Shown: positions 775-8,560 of the stretch, in pieces
Layout of the letters: the number at the start of each line of letters is the position of its first letter
Position numbering within the stretch: position 1 is the stretch's first letter
Origin: Aquiluna sp.
GTDB taxonomy: Bacteria > Actinomycetota > Actinomycetes > Actinomycetales > Microbacteriaceae
Length of the DNA: 45,257 nt
Direction: 5' to 3'
Assembly: GCA_038123155.1 (NCBI GenBank)
Contig: JAYORB010000001.1
Span: 1-45,257 of the forward strand
Notes under the pieces: generated by a model
Told to the model about the DNA's origin: nothing
Database searches by the model: none
What the model saw: only the letters and a program-made list of their open reading frames with translations
Made by a program: the position numbers and the translations under genes

Positions 775-1281
775 ATGAGCCAACATGTGCTTTCTCTTTT
801 GGTTGAAGACAAGCCAGGTATCCTCACCCGAGTAGCTGCGCTGTTCGCTCGCCGCGGGTTCAACATCGAATCCCTTGCCGTTGGCACTACCGAGGTTGAG
901 GGCGTTTCCCGAATGACTGTGGTTGTAAACCTGGATGGCCAGCCATTGGAGCAGGTAACCAAGCAGCTAAACAAACTCGTGAATGTTCTAAAGATTGTTG
1001 AGCTGGAAGACAATGCATCGGTTGCCAGAGATCACATGCTCGTAAAGGTGAAAACTGACGCAGCCACCAGGTCACAGGTTTTAGAGGCCGTAACCCTATT
1101 CAGGGCGAGGGTAATAGATGTCGTCAGTGACTCCGTGGTAATCGAGGTCACCGGGGACAGCGCTAAGTGCAAAGCATTTATCAAGGTGCTCGAGCCGTTT
1201 GGCATCAAAGAGTTGGTCCAGTCCGGGGCCATTGCAATTTCTCGTGGATCAAAGTCCATGAGCGAGAAGGTTCTTAAGTAA
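775..1281 (+). CDS. ilvN: Acetolactate synthase small (regulatory, ACT) subunit
   Basis: LVEDKPGILTRVAALFARRGFNIESL and QVTKQLNKL motifs; operon context. Confidence 0.96.
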   Translation: MSQHVLSLLVEDKPGILTRVAALFARRGFNIESLAVGTTEVEGVSRMTVVVNLDGQPLEQVTKQLNKLVNVLKIVELEDNASVARDHMLVKVKTDAATRSQVLEAVTLFRARVIDVVSDSVVIEVTGDSAKCKAFIKVLEPFGIKELVQSGAIAISRGSKSMSEKVLK

Positions 1282-1295
1282 GAGCTTTTAGATAG

Positions 1296-2339
<1,044 letters not shown>

Positions 2340-2349
2340 TAGAAGGATT

Positions 2350-2380
2350 AGGACCCCGGGAGACCGGGGTCTTTTTCTTT
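2350..2380 (+). terminator. Intrinsic terminator of the ilv operon
   Basis: Stem AGGACCCCGG / CCGGGGTCTT with a GAGA (GNRA) loop, followed by a T-rich tract, 10 nt after the ilvC stop. Confidence 0.9.
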
Positions 2381-2387
2381 CGGCGAG

Positions 2388-2417
2388 TTGCTATACCCCT
2401 AGGGGTATTAGTAAACT
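2388..2417 (+). promoter_or_regulatory. Putative sigmaA-type promoter containing a CsoR/CstR-family operator
   Basis: TTGCTA (2388-2393), 18-bp spacer, TAAACT (2412-2417); perfect 16-bp palindrome ATACCCCTAGGGGTAT at 2393-2408 fills the spacer. Confidence 0.8.
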
Positions 2418-2450
2418 AGTGTGATTGACGTCTGTAGAAAAGGATTGTTT

Positions 2451-2570
2451 ATGTGCTCACAAGCTATTTGCTCAAGCTGCGGCAAGGTCACCTGGCAAGG
2501 TTGCGGCCAGCACGTCGAAGAGGCGCTGGCTGGTGTTCCAGAGTCACAACTCTGCACCTGCCCTAGATAG
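2451..2570 (+). CDS. 39-aa Cys-rich small protein MCSQAICSSCGKVTWQGCGQHVEEALAGVPESQLCTCPR (not in the ORF track)
   Basis: Translated by hand. ATG 2451 with an AAAGGA RBS about 7 nt upstream, TAG 2568-2570, own promoter/operator. The C-x4-C-x2-C-G-K-x-T-W-x-G-C-G-x-H...C-x-C pattern resembles a conserved uncharacterised small-protein family recalled from actinobacteria. Confidence 0.85.
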   Translation: MCSQAICSSCGKVTWQGCGQHVEEALAGVPESQLCTCPR

Positions 2571-2628
2571 CAATAAACGCTAGACTTAGCGGAAATCCCA
2601 TCACCGTTGATTTTCGTTAGGTCAGCTA

Positions 2629-4224
2629 TTGTCCAAACCCATAGTTCTGATTGCCGAGGAGCTGTCCCCGGCAACCGTTGAGGCGCTCGGTCCAGATTTC
2701 GATGTCCGAAATGTGGACGGGACCGATCGTGCTGCCCTCTTTACTGCGCTCGCAGATGCGAATGCTGTCTTGATTCGCTCCGCGACAAAGATGGATGCAG
2801 AGGCTGTCTCCAAGGCACCAAAGCTGAAGGTAATTGCCAGGGCTGGCGTCGGCCTAGACAACGTTGATATCAAAGCTGCAACCGAGGCTGGAGTCATGGT
2901 CGTGAATGCTCCGACCTCCAACGTGATTTCAGCTGCAGAACTCGCTATCGGCCACATCATGGCTCTGTCTCGCCACATCCCCGATGCACACGCATCCTTG
3001 AAGGAGGGCAAGTGGCTCCGGAGCAAGTTCACCGGGGTTGAGCTCTATGAAAAGACCATTGGAATCGTTGGACTGGGCCGAATCGGAACCCTGGTTGCTC
3101 AGCGCCTAGCTGGGTTTGGTGCGACTCTCATTGGCTACGACCCCTACGTAACCCAGGCACGAGCTGAGCAAATCGGGGTCGAACTGGTTGACCTGGACGA
3201 GCTTATGAAGCGCAGTGACTACGTCACGATTCACATTCCAAAGACCCCAGAGACTACCGGGATGATCAGCGATGCGCAGTTCGCTACCGCAAAGCCAAAC
3301 CTGAGAATCGTGAATTGCTCGCGCGGTGGAATCATTGACGAGGATGCCCTTTACAAGGCTTTGAGCTCGGGCAAGATTGCGGGAGCCGGGCTGGATGTGT
3401 TTGTTTCGGAACCCCCAACCGGATCTCCGCTGCTGGAGCTGGATAACGTAATTCTCACCCCGCACCTCGGGGCTTCAACCGACGAGGCTCAGGAGAAGGC
3501 AGGTGTTTCAGTCGCAAGGAGCGTCCGGCTCGCCTTGGCGGGAGACCTAGTTCCGGATGCAGTCAATGTTGCGGGCGGTGTAATCGACTCGTCCGTGAAA
3601 CCAGGCATCCCGCTTGCGGAAAAGCTCGGTCAGATTGTCGCTGGATTGGCCCACACTTCAATCGTCTCGGTTGAGTTTGAGGCACGTGGCGAAATCGCAG
3701 CTCACGACGTGACGGTTTTGAAGCTGGCTGCACTCAAGGGGCTCTTTCAAACAATGGTTACCGAGCAGGTCTCCTACGTAAATGCGCCAATCATGGCCGA
3801 GCAGAGAGGCGTCGAGGTTCGTCTAACTCAGGACACGGTGAGCGATGAGTATCGAAACGTCACGACCCTAAAGGCAGTTTTGTCAGACGGCACTGTGGTC
3901 TCTGCTGGCGGCACGGTAATCGGCCCAAAGCACCACCAAAAGGTTGTCTCAATCAATGGGTATGACGTTGAGCTTGCGATGGCTGACAACATGGTCGTCA
4001 TGGTCTACCAGGACCGACCAGGCATCGTCGCGATCTACGGCGCAGCTTTTGCAGACGCCAACATCAACATCGCTTCAATGACCATTGCTAGGCAGCAAAA
4101 GGGCGGTAAAGCTCTCAGCGTGATAACTGTTGACTCGCCAATTGCCCCAGAGCTCCTAGAAGGGCTAAAGAGCAAGATTCAGGCGGAGATGATGCGGGCT
4201 ATCTCGATTAGTGAGCAGTACTAA
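2629..4224 (+). CDS. serA: D-3-phosphoglycerate dehydrogenase (type I, with ASB and ACT domains); TTG start
   Basis: RAGVGLDNVD, GLGRIG, TPHLGAST, C-terminal ACT (DRPGIVA). Confidence 0.97.
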   Translation: MSKPIVLIAEELSPATVEALGPDFDVRNVDGTDRAALFTALADANAVLIRSATKMDAEAVSKAPKLKVIARAGVGLDNVDIKAATEAGVMVVNAPTSNVISAAELAIGHIMALSRHIPDAHASLKEGKWLRSKFTGVELYEKTIGIVGLGRIGTLVAQRLAGFGATLIGYDPYVTQARAEQIGVELVDLDELMKRSDYVTIHIPKTPETTGMISDAQFATAKPNLRIVNCSRGGIIDEDALYKALSSGKIAGAGLDVFVSEPPTGSPLLELDNVILTPHLGASTDEAQEKAGVSVARSVRLALAGDLVPDAVNVAGGVIDSSVKPGIPLAEKLGQIVAGLAHTSIVSVEFEARGEIAAHDVTVLKLAALKGLFQTMVTEQVSYVNAPIMAEQRGVEVRLTQDTVSDEYRNVTTLKAVLSDGTVVSAGGTVIGPKHHQKVVSINGYDVELAMADNMVVMVYQDRPGIVAIYGAAFADANINIASMTIARQQKGGKALSVITVDSPIAPELLEGLKSKIQAEMMRAISISEQY

Positions 4225-5866
4225 TTACTTTCGCTCGCTCTCTGGCATCCATGCCTGAGCGCCAGGTGGTGTAGCCGCCGTCTAGGTTTCTAACCTTCAG
4301 GCCGTGTGAGCGAAGCAGCTGTGTCGCCGTGTGGCCCCGCTGACCAACTGCACAGGTCACAATGAGGTCTTTCCCCTCCAGCTTTGAAATGTTGTCTCGC
4401 AGCGTATCGACTGGGATCAGGGTCGAACCCGGGATGCTTCCCGCAGAGTTCTCCTCACTGGTTCTCACATCTACAAGCAGCGCTCCCTCTTGCATGGCAC
4501 TCTCTAGCTCGTGCCACTGAATGCTTGGCGTCTTTCCTGAGAGTGAGTTGTTGCCAACGTAGCCGGTTTGATTGATGGCATCTTTTGCACTTCCAAAGGC
4601 TGGCGCGTATGCGAGCTCGAGGTTCATCAGATCATCCACGGTTAGGCCCGCATAGATGGCCGTGGCAATCACGTCAATTCTCTTGTCGACGCCCTCACGC
4701 CCAATGCCCTGAGCCCCCAGGAGTTTTCCCGTTTCGGGGTCAAAGAGCACCTTGACACTAAGCCTCTCGGCACCTGGGTAATAGCCTGCGTGGCTGGATG
4801 GGTGGAGGTGAATTACTCGGTGGGGAATCTCCATGCGAGTCGCAAGCCCTTCGGTAAGCCCGGTAAGTGCCGCGGCCATGCCGTAGGCACCGATGATTCC
4901 GGTTCCAATCGAGGGCCTAGAGCTAACTTCTTCACCTGCGATGACGTCAGCGACGAGCCTGCCGTGGCGATTTGCAAGGTTGGCAAGCCAAATCATTTGG
5001 GGTTCTCCCGTGAGGAGGCTGGTCTTCTCAGCGGCATCACCGACCGCAAAAATGTTCGGGTCCGAGGTCTGCATACGTTCGTTTACCGCAATGCCACCGG
5101 CCTTGCCAATTTCCAGTCCCGCATCAACGGCGAGCTGGTGGTCGGCGACAACACCAATTGCTGCAACTACCAGGTCAGCAGGAATTACCCTGCCGTCCTT
5201 GAGCCGGAGAGAGTCAGCAAGGACCTCCTCGGTCTCGGCACCAAGAGCCAGCTTGATTCCGTTTTCGACAAGAACTGCCTGCAGCGGCTCAATCATCTCT
5301 GGATCGAACTGGGGGAGGATGTTGTCCCTGAACTCCACGATCGTGGTCTCAATCCCTCGATCCCGGAGGTTCTCCGCTAGCTCGACTCCAATGAATCCAG
5401 CACCAATGATTGCCGCGGACTTGATTTTCTTTTCATCCACCAATTTCTTGATCTCAGTTGCATCCTGGACGTCTCTGAGAACCTTGGCTCGCTCGAGCCC
5501 TGGAATTGGAACCATTCGGGGCTTAGCACCGGTGGAGAGTACGAGGGAGTCAAAGCTCTCGAGGTATTCCTCGCCATTTTCCAGGTTTTTCACGGTCACC
5601 GACTTTGAGCCGCGGTCAATGTTTGTGACTCTTGAGTTGACCCGGACATCCAGGCGGAAGCGCTCTCCAAGGCTCTCCGGGGTCTGAAGCAGTAGGTCCT
5701 TCTCAGCAGGAATTACCTCTCCAATGTGATACGGCAGGCCGCAATTCGCATATGAAACGTGAGGTCCCTGTTCAAAGACAATGATCTCTGCATATTCGCG
5801 GAGCCTGCGGAGCCTCGTGGCGGTGGACATGCCTCCCGCAACGCCACCGACAATTACTACCTTCAT
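4208..5866 (-). CDS. CoA-disulfide/persulfide reductase-rhodanese fusion (CoADR-RHD, Npsr/CoAPR-like)
   Basis: GGVAGG FAD site, SYANCGLPY redox Cys, GAGFIG NAD site, LAYAP, C-terminal rhodanese domain DVR...CAVGQRG. Confidence 0.92.
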   Translation of the reverse strand: MKVVIVGGVAGGMSTATRLRRLREYAEIIVFEQGPHVSYANCGLPYHIGEVIPAEKDLLLQTPESLGERFRLDVRVNSRVTNIDRGSKSVTVKNLENGEEYLESFDSLVLSTGAKPRMVPIPGLERAKVLRDVQDATEIKKLVDEKKIKSAAIIGAGFIGVELAENLRDRGIETTIVEFRDNILPQFDPEMIEPLQAVLVENGIKLALGAETEEVLADSLRLKDGRVIPADLVVAAIGVVADHQLAVDAGLEIGKAGGIAVNERMQTSDPNIFAVGDAAEKTSLLTGEPQMIWLANLANRHGRLVADVIAGEEVSSRPSIGTGIIGAYGMAAALTGLTEGLATRMEIPHRVIHLHPSSHAGYYPGAERLSVKVLFDPETGKLLGAQGIGREGVDKRIDVIATAIYAGLTVDDLMNLELAYAPAFGSAKDAINQTGYVGNNSLSGKTPSIQWHELESAMQEGALLVDVRTSEENSAGSIPGSTLIPVDTLRDNISKLEGKDLIVTCAVGQRGHTATQLLRSHGLKVRNLDGGYTTWRSGMDARERAKVISTAH

Positions 5867-6198
5867 TTTCGTACCGTCCTAAGTCCTGCTCTTTGCCAGG
5901 CGACCATGCCGCCGGAAACATTTGTCACGTTGTAGCCCTCTTTTGTCAGCAGTGTTGCTGCCTGGGAGGAGCGCCCGCCCGAATTGCAAATAACCAATAT
6001 CTCTCGCTCTTTGGGAATCTCTTTGAGCCTGCGGGGGAGCACTCCCAATGAAATCAACTTCGCACCCGGTGCGTGGCCACTGCGATACTCGACGCTCTCC
6101 CTAACATCAAGCAGCATCGCACCAGCCTGGATGCGAGCCTCTGCCTCCTGCGGCGTAATCGAAGGAAACTTTGGTTTCAAAAAATCGAACAGTCCCAT
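5863..6198 (-). CDS. Single-domain rhodanese (sulfurtransferase)
   Basis: LLDVRE..EY..GH.PGA, active-site loop CNSGGRS, GGMVAW; 4-nt overlap with the CoADR-RHD start. Confidence 0.92.
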   Translation of the reverse strand: MGLFDFLKPKFPSITPQEAEARIQAGAMLLDVRESVEYRSGHAPGAKLISLGVLPRRLKEIPKEREILVICNSGGRSSQAATLLTKEGYNVTNVSGGMVAWQRAGLRTVRK

Positions 6199-6204
6199 AT
6201 GTTC

Positions 6205-6462
6205 CTAACTCAGTGCCAAAAAGGCTTTTTCGAGGCGCGCGCGATCCCTTTCGCCCTCTTCGCCGGTGCCGCAGTTCGAGATTCCAGATGCCAGAAGAGC
6301 AAAAGCGGCTTTGTTCACCGCGGAGTTGGCGGCAGCAAGCTGAGTCAGCACATCAGTGCAGTCTCTACCCTCGTCCAGCATTTTGATGATGCCCCCCAGC
6401 TGGCCCTGGGCCCTTGCGAGGCGCTTCTTTACAGCGTCGATTTCTAGTGCTGGAATCTCCAT
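6205..6462 (-). CDS. CsoR/RcnR-family (DUF156) repressor, CstR/Rv1766-like; start reassigned to ATG 6462
   Basis: RLARAQGQLGGIIKMLDEGRDC..V..QLAA...GISNC signature; a GGAG RBS lies just upstream of ATG 6462. Confidence 0.9.
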   Translation of the reverse strand: MEIPALEIDAVKKRLARAQGQLGGIIKMLDEGRDCTDVLTQLAAANSAVNKAAFALLASGISNCGTGEEGERDRARLEKAFLALS

Positions 6463-6480
6463 AACACGCTCCATTCGAAC

Positions 6481-6518
6481 TTGACTAAACAAACTCTAGC
6501 ACATACCCTAGGGGGTAT
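6481..6518. promoter_or_regulatory. Divergent promoter region with a CsoR/CstR-family operator
   Basis: Operator ATACCCTAGGGGGTAT at 6503-6518. Plus strand: TTGACT (6481-6486), 17 bp, TACCCT (6504-6509, inside the operator). Minus strand: extended -10 TGcTAGAGT (hexamer 6493-6498). Confidence 0.8.
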
Positions 6519-6533
6519 CTGAAAGGACACCCA

Positions 6534-6902
6534 TTGAAGCTTATGAAGACCCTTGCCGCTGGCATACTTGCTGTTGTCGCCATATTCGGACTAGCAGGAT
6601 GTGCACCGGAAGAAATGAACCCACAGGACTACGCAGCAGTAATTGACGTTCGCACCCCAGAGGAGTGGGCATCCGGCCACCTCGCTGGAGCAGTCCGCAT
6701 GGGTATTGCTGACAGTGACTTTGCCGCTCAGCTCGAGACTTTGGACAAGAGTGCCGATTACTACATCTACTGCCGCTCCGGTAACCGTGCTGGCCAGGCC
6801 ATCGATTTCATGGAGAGCATTGGCTTCACCGGAGAGCTGGTCAATGGTGGATCTGTTGCTAACGCGTCCGCTCAGCTTGGCCTTGAAGTGGTAACCGATT
6901 AG
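6534..6902 (+). CDS. Rhodanese-domain lipoprotein; TTG start
   Basis: AAAGGA RBS; basic N-terminus, hydrophobic core and lipobox LAGC; DVRT..EW..GH; active loop CRSGNRA. Confidence 0.9.
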   Translation: MKLMKTLAAGILAVVAIFGLAGCAPEEMNPQDYAAVIDVRTPEEWASGHLAGAVRMGIADSDFAAQLETLDKSADYYIYCRSGNRAGQAIDFMESIGFTGELVNGGSVANASAQLGLEVVTD

Positions 6903-7506
6903 CTCAGCAGATTGGGATAGGCGCTATGCCCAGGAGGCAAGTGTCTGGTCTCTAGAGCCAAACCATTTTGTTGTAAGTGAGCTGGGAGACCTCCCTCCCG
7001 GGCAAGTAGTTGACCTTGCCGGCGGAGAAGGCCGCAATGCGCTTTGGTTTGCATCGAGAGGCTGGCAGGCCGAGAACGTCGAGTTCTCAAAAGTTGCCCT
7101 TGAGAAATTTGTTGCAAGGGCCGAGGCACTAGAGCTTGAGAACCAATGTCGCGCTACTCATGCCGATGCCAAGCACGCCAAGTTTCAGCTCAAGCCGGAC
7201 CTGCTACTTATCTGCTACCTCCAACTGCCTTGGGCAGAGCTTGAGCAAGCCCTCGATAACGCACTTGACCAGCTTGGCGAGGGAGAGATCTTCGGGGTTT
7301 GGCACGCCTTGAGGAATGTAACCGAGGGTTTCGGCGGACCTCCATTGCCTGAGCTAAATGTCGATCCCGATAAGTTGAGCAGCTGGGCGGAATCGCGAGG
7401 TCTGATCTTTGATTGTCGAGAGCGGGAGCGGAGGGTCTCCAAGGATGGCGCTGAGGTGACCGCTATCGACGTGCAATTTAGGGCAAGCGCTGACAAAAGC
7501 GAATAG
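6898..7506 (+). CDS. Class I SAM-dependent methyltransferase (TehB/thiol-methyltransferase-like), about 202 aa, apparent ATT start; the ORF track shows only 7309-7506
   Basis: Hand translation gives [56 protein letters not shown]... with SAM motif [10 protein letters not shown]. In-frame TAA at 6892-6894; no ATG/GTG/TTG until 7309. Confidence 0.85.
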
Positions 7507-7534
7507 GGTTGTCTCAGAAAATTGTGAGGCAATC

Positions 7535-8560
7535 TTGAGCGCGCTGAATCTAGCTGTAATTCCAGGTGACGGCATTGGGCCGGAGGTAACCAGCGTTGCT
7601 CTCAGGGCTCTAGAAAAGGCTCTGGAAGGGGTTAGGGTCCAGACAACCGAATATGACCTTGGTGCAAACCGGTACCTAGCAAAAGGTGAAATTCTCACAG
7701 ATTCAGATCTTTCAAACCTGAAAAAGCACGATGCGATCTTGCTTGGTGCCATTGGTGACCCGAGGGTTCCCTCTGGTGTGCTGGAGCGAGGGCTGCTGTT
7801 GAAGCTGCGCTTCGCATTTGACCACCACATCAACCTTCGCCCCACGAAACTGTTTGCAGGAGTCAGCAGCGTGCTGTCGGGTGCCAAGGACATTGACTTC
7901 GTGGTTGTTCGGGAGGGTACAGAGGGTCCATACGTTGGTAACGGAGGTGCACTGAGGGTAGGCAGCGACCAAGAGCTTGCAAATGAAGTCTCAGTGAATA
8001 CCCACCATGGGGTCTCCAGGGCGGTCCGCTACGCGTTTGAGCTAGCGAACAGCAGAGAGCGAAAGCAACTCACGCTGGTTCACAAAACCAATGTTCTGGT
8101 GCACGCGGGAAAGCTTTGGCTAAGGCTTGTTGAGGAAACTGCAAGGGAGTTTCCAGAGGTTACCCACGACTACATGCACATCGATGCGGCAACAATTCAC
8201 ATGGTCAACTCGCCTGAGCGCTTTGATGTGATCGTCACGGACAATCTGTTTGGCGACATCATTACCGATCTTGCGGCAGCCATTTCTGGTGGCATAGGCC
8301 TGGCTGCTTCCGCTAACCTAAACCCCACTGGGGCCTTTCCCTCCATGTTCGAACCCGTTCATGGATCAGCTCCTGACATCGCCGGAAAAAATCTGGCCGA
8401 TCCAACCGCGGCAATCCTCTCCGCGGCACTTCTCGCAAAAACCCTCGGACATTCGAGTGCTGCGCAGAAGATTGAGAACGCAGTCTCTGATTACCTTGCT
8501 GGAAGCGAGAAAGCCTCCGGCACCTCAGAGATCGCAACGGCGATACTGGAGAAGATTTAG
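7535..8560 (+). CDS. leuB: 3-isopropylmalate dehydrogenase; TTG start
   Basis: [43 protein letters not shown]. Confidence 0.96.

Follow-up and report, generated by a model that had tools for sequence, protein, structure and literature searches.

We analyzed a window of 45,257 nucleotides (the whole stretch of DNA considered here) from an Aquiluna sp. genome that is 1.23 Mb in size, with 55% GC, 86% completeness, and 4.7% contamination. Between ilvC (1314-2339) and serA (2629-4224) lies a short plus-strand gene (2451-2570), and the same gene order is also seen at another Aquiluna sp. locus (L029). The features of this region are:

2350-2380, plus strand: intrinsic terminator after ilvC, with a 10-bp stem and a T run (hairpin 2350-2373; terminator scan, sequence)
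2388-2393, plus strand: putative -35 element TTGCTA (sequence; TTGCWA kept in four close relatives; below the promoter-scan threshold)
2393-2408, no strand: predicted operator 1, a perfect 16-bp palindrome, ATACCCCTAGGGGTAT, fitting ATACC-n6-GGTAT (motif search)
2412-2417, plus strand: putative -10 element TAAACT (sequence; TAnnnT at the same offset in the closest relatives)
2439-2444, plus strand: ribosome-binding site AAAGGA, 6 nt before the ATG (sequence)
2451-2570, plus strand: gene for a 39-aa microprotein with six cysteines and one histidine (translation, homologues, pN/pS)
2629-4224, plus strand: serA, phosphoglycerate dehydrogenase, directly downstream (family match)

Translation of the 2451-2570 frame gives cysteines at positions 2, 7, 10, 18, 35, and 37 and a histidine at position 21, as a preliminary description of this DNA had reported. 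A homologue of the microprotein was present in 26 of the 41 genomes searched, which is above chance: 17 of the 24 from this genus and 8 of the 16 that represent other families in the order carry it, as does the genome of the window. Against the window sequence, uncorrected pN/pS values ranged from 0.04 to 0.71 and fell below 1 in all 17 same-genus relatives, with 0.04-0.22 for the seven that resemble the window most, and third codon positions carried most of the differences among these relatives (1223, 931, and 2611 at positions one, two, and three, respectively). The microprotein gene is under purifying selection in all 17 same-genus relatives and is a real gene. The check that the preliminary description had proposed, homologues and codon-level conservation, thus turned up both (701 clusters, and pN/pS below 1 throughout). 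That description had also taken an 88-aa minus-strand ORF over the gene to be its probable shadow, and this is borne out because the antisense frame contains a stop in 14 of the 17 relatives. The opposite assignment, in which the microprotein ORF is itself a shadow or chance ORF, is ruled out by the pN/pS values, the codon-position pattern, and the broken antisense frame. A longer start at GTG 2421 was also rejected, being not conserved as a start, and the open frames of several relatives are just 40-44 codons long.

Contigs from environmental RNA libraries of close relatives cover the microprotein ORF. Four of them (X2, X6, X8, and X9, from three studies) start at 2439-2499 and run into serA, and in two runs of a fourth study the contigs span the whole intergenic region. 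The terminator-promoter stretch (2341-2438) is covered by contigs X1 and X4 and uncovered in X5, X6, and X8; the missing cover carries no weight as evidence. Since these contigs come without strand or level and possibly include DNA, we regard them as a weak hint only.

Upstream of the gene, TTGCTA and TAAACT flank operator 1 with a spacer of 18 nt. The pair matches 8 of 12 consensus bases and is missing from the promoter-scan list, so its support comes from conservation in close relatives. Of the -35/-10 pair that had been described before, the placement around the operator and the conservation stand, and the fit to consensus is poor. The palindrome sits between the two hexamers, in keeping with the proposal that the gene has its own operator-controlled promoter, and the AAAGGA ribosome-binding site of the preliminary description is present. 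Its third claim about this region, that a strong terminator insulates the gene, holds on one side: the hairpin follows the ilvC stop, and a terminator scan of 2571-2631 found none between the microprotein gene and serA. Hence, the gene is insulated upstream only. An exact operator core precedes the gene in 10 of the 17 same-genus relatives, and five of the seven relatives without it still encode the regulator described below. An Rfam scan of 1200-7600 gave no credible RNA, with one sub-threshold antisense hit inside the CoA-disulfide-reductase gene. We also noted two variants of the upstream region. In one relative (locus L006, genome G018), the microprotein gene starts 28 nt past the end of ilvC, the terminator, promoter, and operator are all missing, and a search of this 71%-complete genome did not turn up the regulator. 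In part of the genus, a RibD C-terminal-domain gene is apparently inserted between ilvC and the microprotein gene (L007-L009, L011, L012, L014, and L018; L034:4410-4943).

A second copy of the operator lies about 4 kb away, among genes for sulfur enzymes and a regulator:

4208-5866, minus strand: CoA-disulfide-reductase-like flavoprotein fused to a rhodanese (CoADR-RHD, CoA-persulfide-reductase type; TIGR03385, C-terminal rhodanese)
5863-6198, minus strand: single-domain rhodanese (family match)
6205-6492, minus strand: CsoR-family repressor, x-C-G-C (PF02583)
6503-6518, no strand: predicted operator 2, ATACCCTAGGGGGTAT, between the divergent repressor operon and the lipoprotein rhodanese (motif search)
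6534-6902, plus strand: rhodanese with a signal peptide and an LAGC lipobox, a predicted lipoprotein (sequence, family match)

The repressor gene heads an operon with the rhodanese and CoADR-RHD, the latter having a catalytic Cys motif SYANC and a TIGR03385 score of 450 bits, below the cut-off of 579. The fingerprint residues of the repressor are C35, G60, and C64 (numbered from the ATG at 6462), and the copper-ligand histidine is absent. The x-C-G-C signature is found in the window repressor and in 10 full-length relatives that were parsed, of 15. No other PF02583 gene turned up in this genome, which is 86% complete. The exact 16-mer operator pattern occurs at two sites in 1.23 Mb (2393-2408 and 6503-6518), and two further sites with one mismatch both lie within coding genes. 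At the genome's two copZ-copA copies, a genome-wide motif search found no CsoR-family operator, and no copper-type CsoR was found for them in this 86%-complete assembly; the two loci (on contigs C104 and C113 of G000) are similar and may be a strain duplication in the assembly. PDO, TauE, and SQR were not found with the seeds used in 119 tiles of the genome. The locus shows the traits of CstR/ScCsoR-type regulons, namely an x-C-x-C repressor, ATACC-n6-GGTAT at a promoter, and sulfur genes beside the regulator. The signature of the repressor, His-less and of the persulfide-sensor type, agrees with the preliminary description, which had judged the cognate regulator to be sulfur- rather than copper-sensing. 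We suggest that this neighboring His-less regulator very probably binds operator 1 and, by analogy with ScCsoR, that sulfane sulfur quite likely lifts the repression. A complex prediction with two regulator copies, the microprotein, and two zinc ions scored 0.01 and gave no usable model.

To place this arrangement in a wider setting, we called neighboring genes with Pfam-checked seeds in 80 loci, the best-scoring 80 of at least 589 confirmed matches and not a random sample; in two-copy loci, the first copy found was used. First, an exact operator core lay within 200 nt upstream of the gene in 33 of these 80 best-scoring loci, whereas 22 of 3063 control windows taken from elsewhere in these loci had one. 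At sites elsewhere, the -10 element begins inside the operator in 34 of 53 cases. Second, a sulfur gene of some type (rhodanese, CoADR-RHD, PDO, SQR, TauE, DsrE, or YgaP) was nearby in 34 of the best 80 of at least 589 loci, and a control of the same seeds gave 0 of 119 tiles of the window's own genome. By type, these best 80 loci hold rhodanese in 31, CoADR-RHD in 22, SQR in 7, and PDO and TauE in 5 each, together with CsoR in 23, a P1B ATPase in 4, and HMA in 1. Third, all 23 neighboring CsoR genes in the best 80 loci are His-less (20 parsed by script and 3 read by hand), and the CsoR seeds do detect copper-type CsoR (E ≤ 2.4e-7). In a set of five genomes, all 5 regulator loci of the x-C-x-C type had the operator motif, and none of the 7 of the x-C-H-C type did. 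Fourth, 42 of the best 80 loci lack both sulfur genes and CsoR in their neighborhood; in 26 of these 42, the operator is absent as well. A Shine-Dalgarno pattern, defined permissively and uncontrolled, precedes the Met start in 74 of the best 80.

We also looked at co-occurrence with the regulator. Among the 24 same-genus genomes, 15 encode the regulator and all 15 carry the microprotein gene, while the regulator is found in 0 of the 7 genomes without it. In 301 class-level genomes, with a regulator threshold calibrated to leave out copper types, gene and regulator occur together in 101, the gene alone in 20, the regulator alone in 55, and neither in 125 (101/20/53/125 without the unpublished regulator-only genomes G063 and G070); these counts include kin and are not independent. 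One family with genomes mostly of 7-10 Mb (f39) has the gene in 0 of 20 and the regulator in 8 of 20, and several genomes of 1.3-1.5 Mb keep the gene without the regulator. The microprotein gene is a frequent, not obligatory, member of a probable persulfide regulon; the link is not obligatory because 7 of the 17 same-genus relatives lack the operator.

Several other neighbors and arrangements were seen in the best 80 of at least 589 loci. A P1B ATPase with a TPCP motif lies downstream of three operator-bearing microprotein genes, in two cases within 112 nt (L036:5202-7124, L039:6566-8461, and L044:5208-6452), which may be a metal link to the regulon. Cytochrome bd subunit I is near the gene in five of these loci (L068, L075, L088, L090, and L098); bd oxidases tolerate sulfide. 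MMPL exporters are near it in four (L038, L049, L072, and L075). Paralogue pairs, a Cys37 type with a His38 type or a tailed form, lie within about 300 nt of each other at L030, L054, L089, L094, L101, L103, and L106.

Two characterized sulfur-responsive systems are among the closest to this locus. ScCsoR (SCO0620) of Streptomyces coelicolor is a two-Cys CsoR-family repressor with its cysteines 29 apart, as here; it binds ATACC-n6-GGTAT, the motif that both window operators fit, and is released by persulfidation of Cys37 (PMC7533328, in the part available). Its circuit is like the window in having a 16-bp operator between divergent regulator and rhodanese genes and unlike it in comprising four genes, with PDO-rhodanese and TauE and, in the available part of the source, no small Cys-rich gene described (PMC7533328). 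The window, for its part, has CoADR-RHD and two rhodaneses, with a further operator (operator 1) at the microprotein gene 4 kb away. Its enzyme set is that of the CstR operons of Enterococcus faecalis and mitis-group streptococci (RhdA, RhdB, and CoA persulfide reductase), and the S. mitis CstR operator TACCCTTATGGGGTA is very similar to the window operator; the accessible portion of the source mentions no microprotein in these operons (PMC8643695). The window regulator differs from CstR in being of the actinomycete x-C-G-C type without the wedge Asn, and fits what that portion says of SSN cluster 3, a candidate persulfide-sensor cluster of x-C-x-C actinomycete proteins that include ScCsoR and Rv1766 (PMC8643695). 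Such x-C-x-C actinomycete regulators are largely uncharacterised, according to the available part of PMC11672702.

The microprotein family extends well beyond these actinomycetes. A phmmer search returned 701 clusters at 50% identity (E ≤ 0.001) and a profile search 4005 clusters at 90% identity, and at class level 121 of 301 genomes carry the gene, at phylum level 12 of 151. The matches listed include Arthrobacter, Agrococcus, and Gordonia rhizosphera strains and, beyond Actinomycetota, Acidobacteria, Myxococcales, and Chloroflexota. Ten proteins were picked as possibly eukaryotic, six of them named (Populus, Tricharina, Colletotrichum, Obelidium, Helobdella, and Chlorochromonas), and Rhizoctonia and Fistulina are also among the matches, so the domain has fungal, plant, animal, and algal members. 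Seven viral-collection contigs (L131-L137) encode the domain as well; five are AT-rich, one is labeled GVMAG, and one has a thioredoxin nearby. Two clusters from metagenome contigs (P0299 and P0314; 8 and 24 sequences) join the domain, as the N-terminal part, to a WCGPC thioredoxin, and an intron-like break in these clusters suggests a eukaryotic source. Longer matches that join the domain to CsoR, CoADR, PDO, TauE, YgaP, or rhodanese were rejected as fusions, being mostly single sequences that look like read-through or frameshift, and were counted only as signs of adjacency.

Named matches are called hypothetical or uncharacterized, save two named for an attached rhodanese or thioredoxin domain and one for ThiC. 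Pfam and NCBIfam hold no family for the query or for 129 members (the best hits are at chance level, e.g., YyzF in 3 members), 22 members found no match in PHROGs, and the best E value among PDB sequences was 0.054, again no match. All 30 of 30 ESM Atlas matches are hypothetical and share no common Pfam, and fold searches gave no match, which means little with 39 residues. The exact 39-aa sequence is absent from the protein collection searched. Our search of the open literature, with subscription journals and the supplements of PMC8643695 (Fig. S1) and PMC7533328 outside its scope, found no description of the family. A plant family, PTHR34724 with Os12g0596101, may be related, and the same open literature yielded nothing on either identifier. 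The family had been called uncharacterised before, and in Pfam, NCBIfam, PHROGs, and the PDB that is how we found it.

To better understand what the protein might do, we considered which residues are fixed. The family pattern is M-C2-x4-C7-x2-C10-x-K-x-T-W-x-G-C18-G-x-H21-x13-C35-x-C37. The 120 best matches, chosen by a profile covering both Cys37 and His types, show no variation at C2, C7, C10, T14, W15, G17, C18, G19, H21, or C35, and 119 of them retain K12. Cys occupies position 37 in 80 matches; the other 40 have Gly there, each of them with a His within 37-39. Likewise, the best 80 of at least 589 loci comprise 63 of Cys37 type and 17 of His type, with none lacking both. Of 149 sequences in the broader phmmer set, 9 are without C35 or without the seventh ligand. 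The start falls at a Met before C2 in 119 of the 120 best matches, and in the broader set this position is Met or Val in 143 of 150. Many members carry an amphipathic-looking C-terminal tail. The exchange of Cys37 for His would point to a metal ligand at this place rather than a disulfide or persulfide. Removal of Met before Cys is established, so Cys2 likely has a free amine. We consider it likely that the microprotein is metal-folded, with zinc the most likely metal. Seven conserved ligands, the Cys37-His swap, and Cys2 beside the Met together suggest that the protein folds around two zinc ions and exposes a site at its N-terminal Cys, rather than acting as a loose store.

An AF2 model (pLDDT 90) places strands at 3-6 and 13-16 and a helix at 22-25. 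Covariation in 382 sequences (effective number about 196) was analyzed by two methods, both of which recovered pairs 3-16, 4-13, and 26-34, the first two strongly (z 3.3-5.0); pairs 8-36 and 9-36 were weak (z 2.0-2.7). These pairs would bring C2 near C18/H21 and C35/C37 near the C7-C10 knuckle, and the ligand pairing proposed below is compatible with them, on a weak signal. Cross-brace binuclear zinc fingers (B-box and AN1) have an ordered set of eight side-chain ligands. The microprotein is like them in its CxxC knuckle, a CxxH at the helix start, a C-terminal x-x pair, and two predicted strands followed by a helix, and unlike them in having seven side-chain ligands, the first pair being reduced to one N-terminal Cys. 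An hhalign comparison with five bacterial B-box sequences gave a probability of 5.3%, and no B-box or AN1 Pfam matched; given this negative comparison, we do not file the microprotein as a cross-brace zinc finger.

Our best explanation, which we hold tentatively, is that the microprotein belongs to a persulfide regulon and is a two-zinc mini-domain whose site at the N-terminal Cys takes up sulfane sulfur. Reactive sulfur would modify the His-less CstR/ScCsoR-type repressor and thereby derepress the reductase-rhodanese operon, the lipoprotein rhodanese, and the microprotein gene. C7, C10, C35, and C37 (or H38) would form a structural zinc site A, and C2, C18, and H21 an exposed zinc site B, with a fourth ligand that may be the alpha-amine that Met removal frees on Cys2, or else an exchangeable HS- or RSS-. 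It is conceivable, at a little under an even chance, that site B captures sulfide or sulfane sulfur and that the co-regulated rhodaneses and CoADR-RHD, or thioredoxin in the fusions, then regenerate the site. On this reading of the sequences, the microprotein likely helps the cell to handle excess reactive sulfur. We are doubtful of the boldest form of the proposal, in which the cross-domain 37-residue fold is a new protein persulfide carrier between rhodaneses, CoA-persulfide reductase, and thioredoxin, with a reactive zinc site completed by a free N-terminal Cys. If true, it would be a missing component of sulfide handling in bacteria and eukaryotes (actinobacteria, fungi, plants, animals, algae, and a few viral contigs).

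The same domain might serve metal rather than sulfur, as a sulfur-induced buffer for zinc or another thiophilic metal that holds or releases the ion when sulfide disturbs the pools and transfers no sulfur itself. The seven conserved ligand positions, one of them open to exchange of Cys for His, the P1B ATPase downstream in 4 of the best 80 of at least 589 loci, and the retention of the gene without the regulator in several 1.3-1.5 Mb genomes would suit such a buffer, which we nevertheless consider unlikely: its capacity is low (about two ions), sulfur-transfer enzymes are the dominant neighbors and thioredoxin the clearest fusion partner, and the invariant K12, T14, W15, G17, and G19 and the fixed N-terminal Cys would exceed the needs of a store. 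By the same residues, together with the confident predicted fold, the "persulfide buffer or Zn/Cu-thiolate store" of the preliminary description is probably too loose a formulation, and a folded metal site fits better.

Invariant non-ligand residues would also suit a small zinc-stabilized adaptor or redox switch whose conserved KxTW-GCG surface docks onto a partner protein such as the repressor or CoADR-RHD. The gene often lies directly beside that of the regulator or CoADR-RHD (less than 100 nt in many of the best 80 of at least 589 loci), and many members have the amphipathic-looking tail. We judge an adaptor quite improbable, as neither neighbor is constant (regulator in 23 and CoADR-RHD in 22 of these best 80 loci) and eukaryotic members exist; to our knowledge, CsoR-family regulators are not expected in eukaryotes. 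A comparably slim case can be made for an iron or Fe-S redox carrier (rubredoxin-like Cys4 or Cys3His) that serves the neighboring FAD reductase. A flavin pyridine-nucleotide reductase is the commonest enzyme neighbor (22 of the best 80 of at least 589 loci), and CxC with CxxH could make a Cys3His set. CoADR-RHD, however, already has its own SYANC motif and a rhodanese, and position 37 is exchanged for His in one-third of members; frequent Cys-to-His exchange is more typical of zinc sites. Rubredoxin has two CxxC knuckles and CDGSH proteins the CDGSH motif, unlike the microprotein with its one CxxC, one CxxH, and one CxC, and no family match exceeded its cut-off; among 129 members, none matched rubredoxin or CDGSH at E ≤ 0.05 save one at E 0.042.

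A MymT-like copper metallothionein under a copper sensor is very improbable, because all 23 CsoR genes at the best 80 of at least 589 loci are His-less (copper-type 0 of 23) and both copZ-copA copies are operator-free, with HMA in only 1 of those 80 loci and no metallothionein family match, even though the protein is tiny and Cys-rich, the operator core is in common with RicR sites, and a copper-type CsoR could be missing from the incomplete genome. The likeness to MymT/RicR of Mycobacterium tuberculosis is that of a tiny, Cys-rich protein (here 6 Cys in 39 aa) with its own promoter and a CsoR-family palindrome of the same core, as in the RicR site TACCCCGCTGGGTA (PMC3944814, in the part available). 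The motif alone is therefore not sulfur-specific, and the sulfur-type assignment rests on context. RicR is an x-C-H-C copper sensor, and MymT binds up to six Cu(I) and, in the available part of the source, is limited to pathogenic mycobacteria (PMC3944814). The microprotein family, in contrast, has no library match, is broadly distributed, and co-travels with a His-less regulator; a metallothionein sequence match and an x-C-H-C repressor with copper genes are both lacking. As a statement of membership, the MymT/RicR analogy drawn in the preliminary description thus fails: no metallothionein match for the query and 129 members, no copper-type regulator at the best 80 of at least 589 loci, and no operator at copZA.

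The persulfide regulon may also reach the gene downstream. A conserved -10-like TAGACT precedes serA at 2581-2586, and a -10-like hexamer occurs in 17 of 18 loci. With no terminator between the two genes and RNA contigs that bridge them (a weak hint), sulfur induction could read through into serA, which would feed serine, the precursor for cysteine synthase; the genome encodes a cysteine synthase. A hairpin in the serA leader of the window was set aside, since the 18 loci compared do not share it as a single structure.

Among CsoR-family persulfide sensors, those of actinomycetes form a large branch, with 3,175 sequences according to PMC8643695, that is barely characterised. By its presence in 121 of 301 class-level genomes, the microprotein gene looks like one of the commonest targets of these sensors. 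The type of regulon is already known, and the microprotein family is its new component, with no model, name, or structure in the libraries searched. A 39-mer can be synthesized or expressed tag-free, which makes its metal content, N-terminal chelation, and persulfidation directly testable. As fungi, plants, an animal, and an alga share the domain with its Met-Cys start, the bacterial regulatory context would provide a first testable handle on a eukaryotic family.
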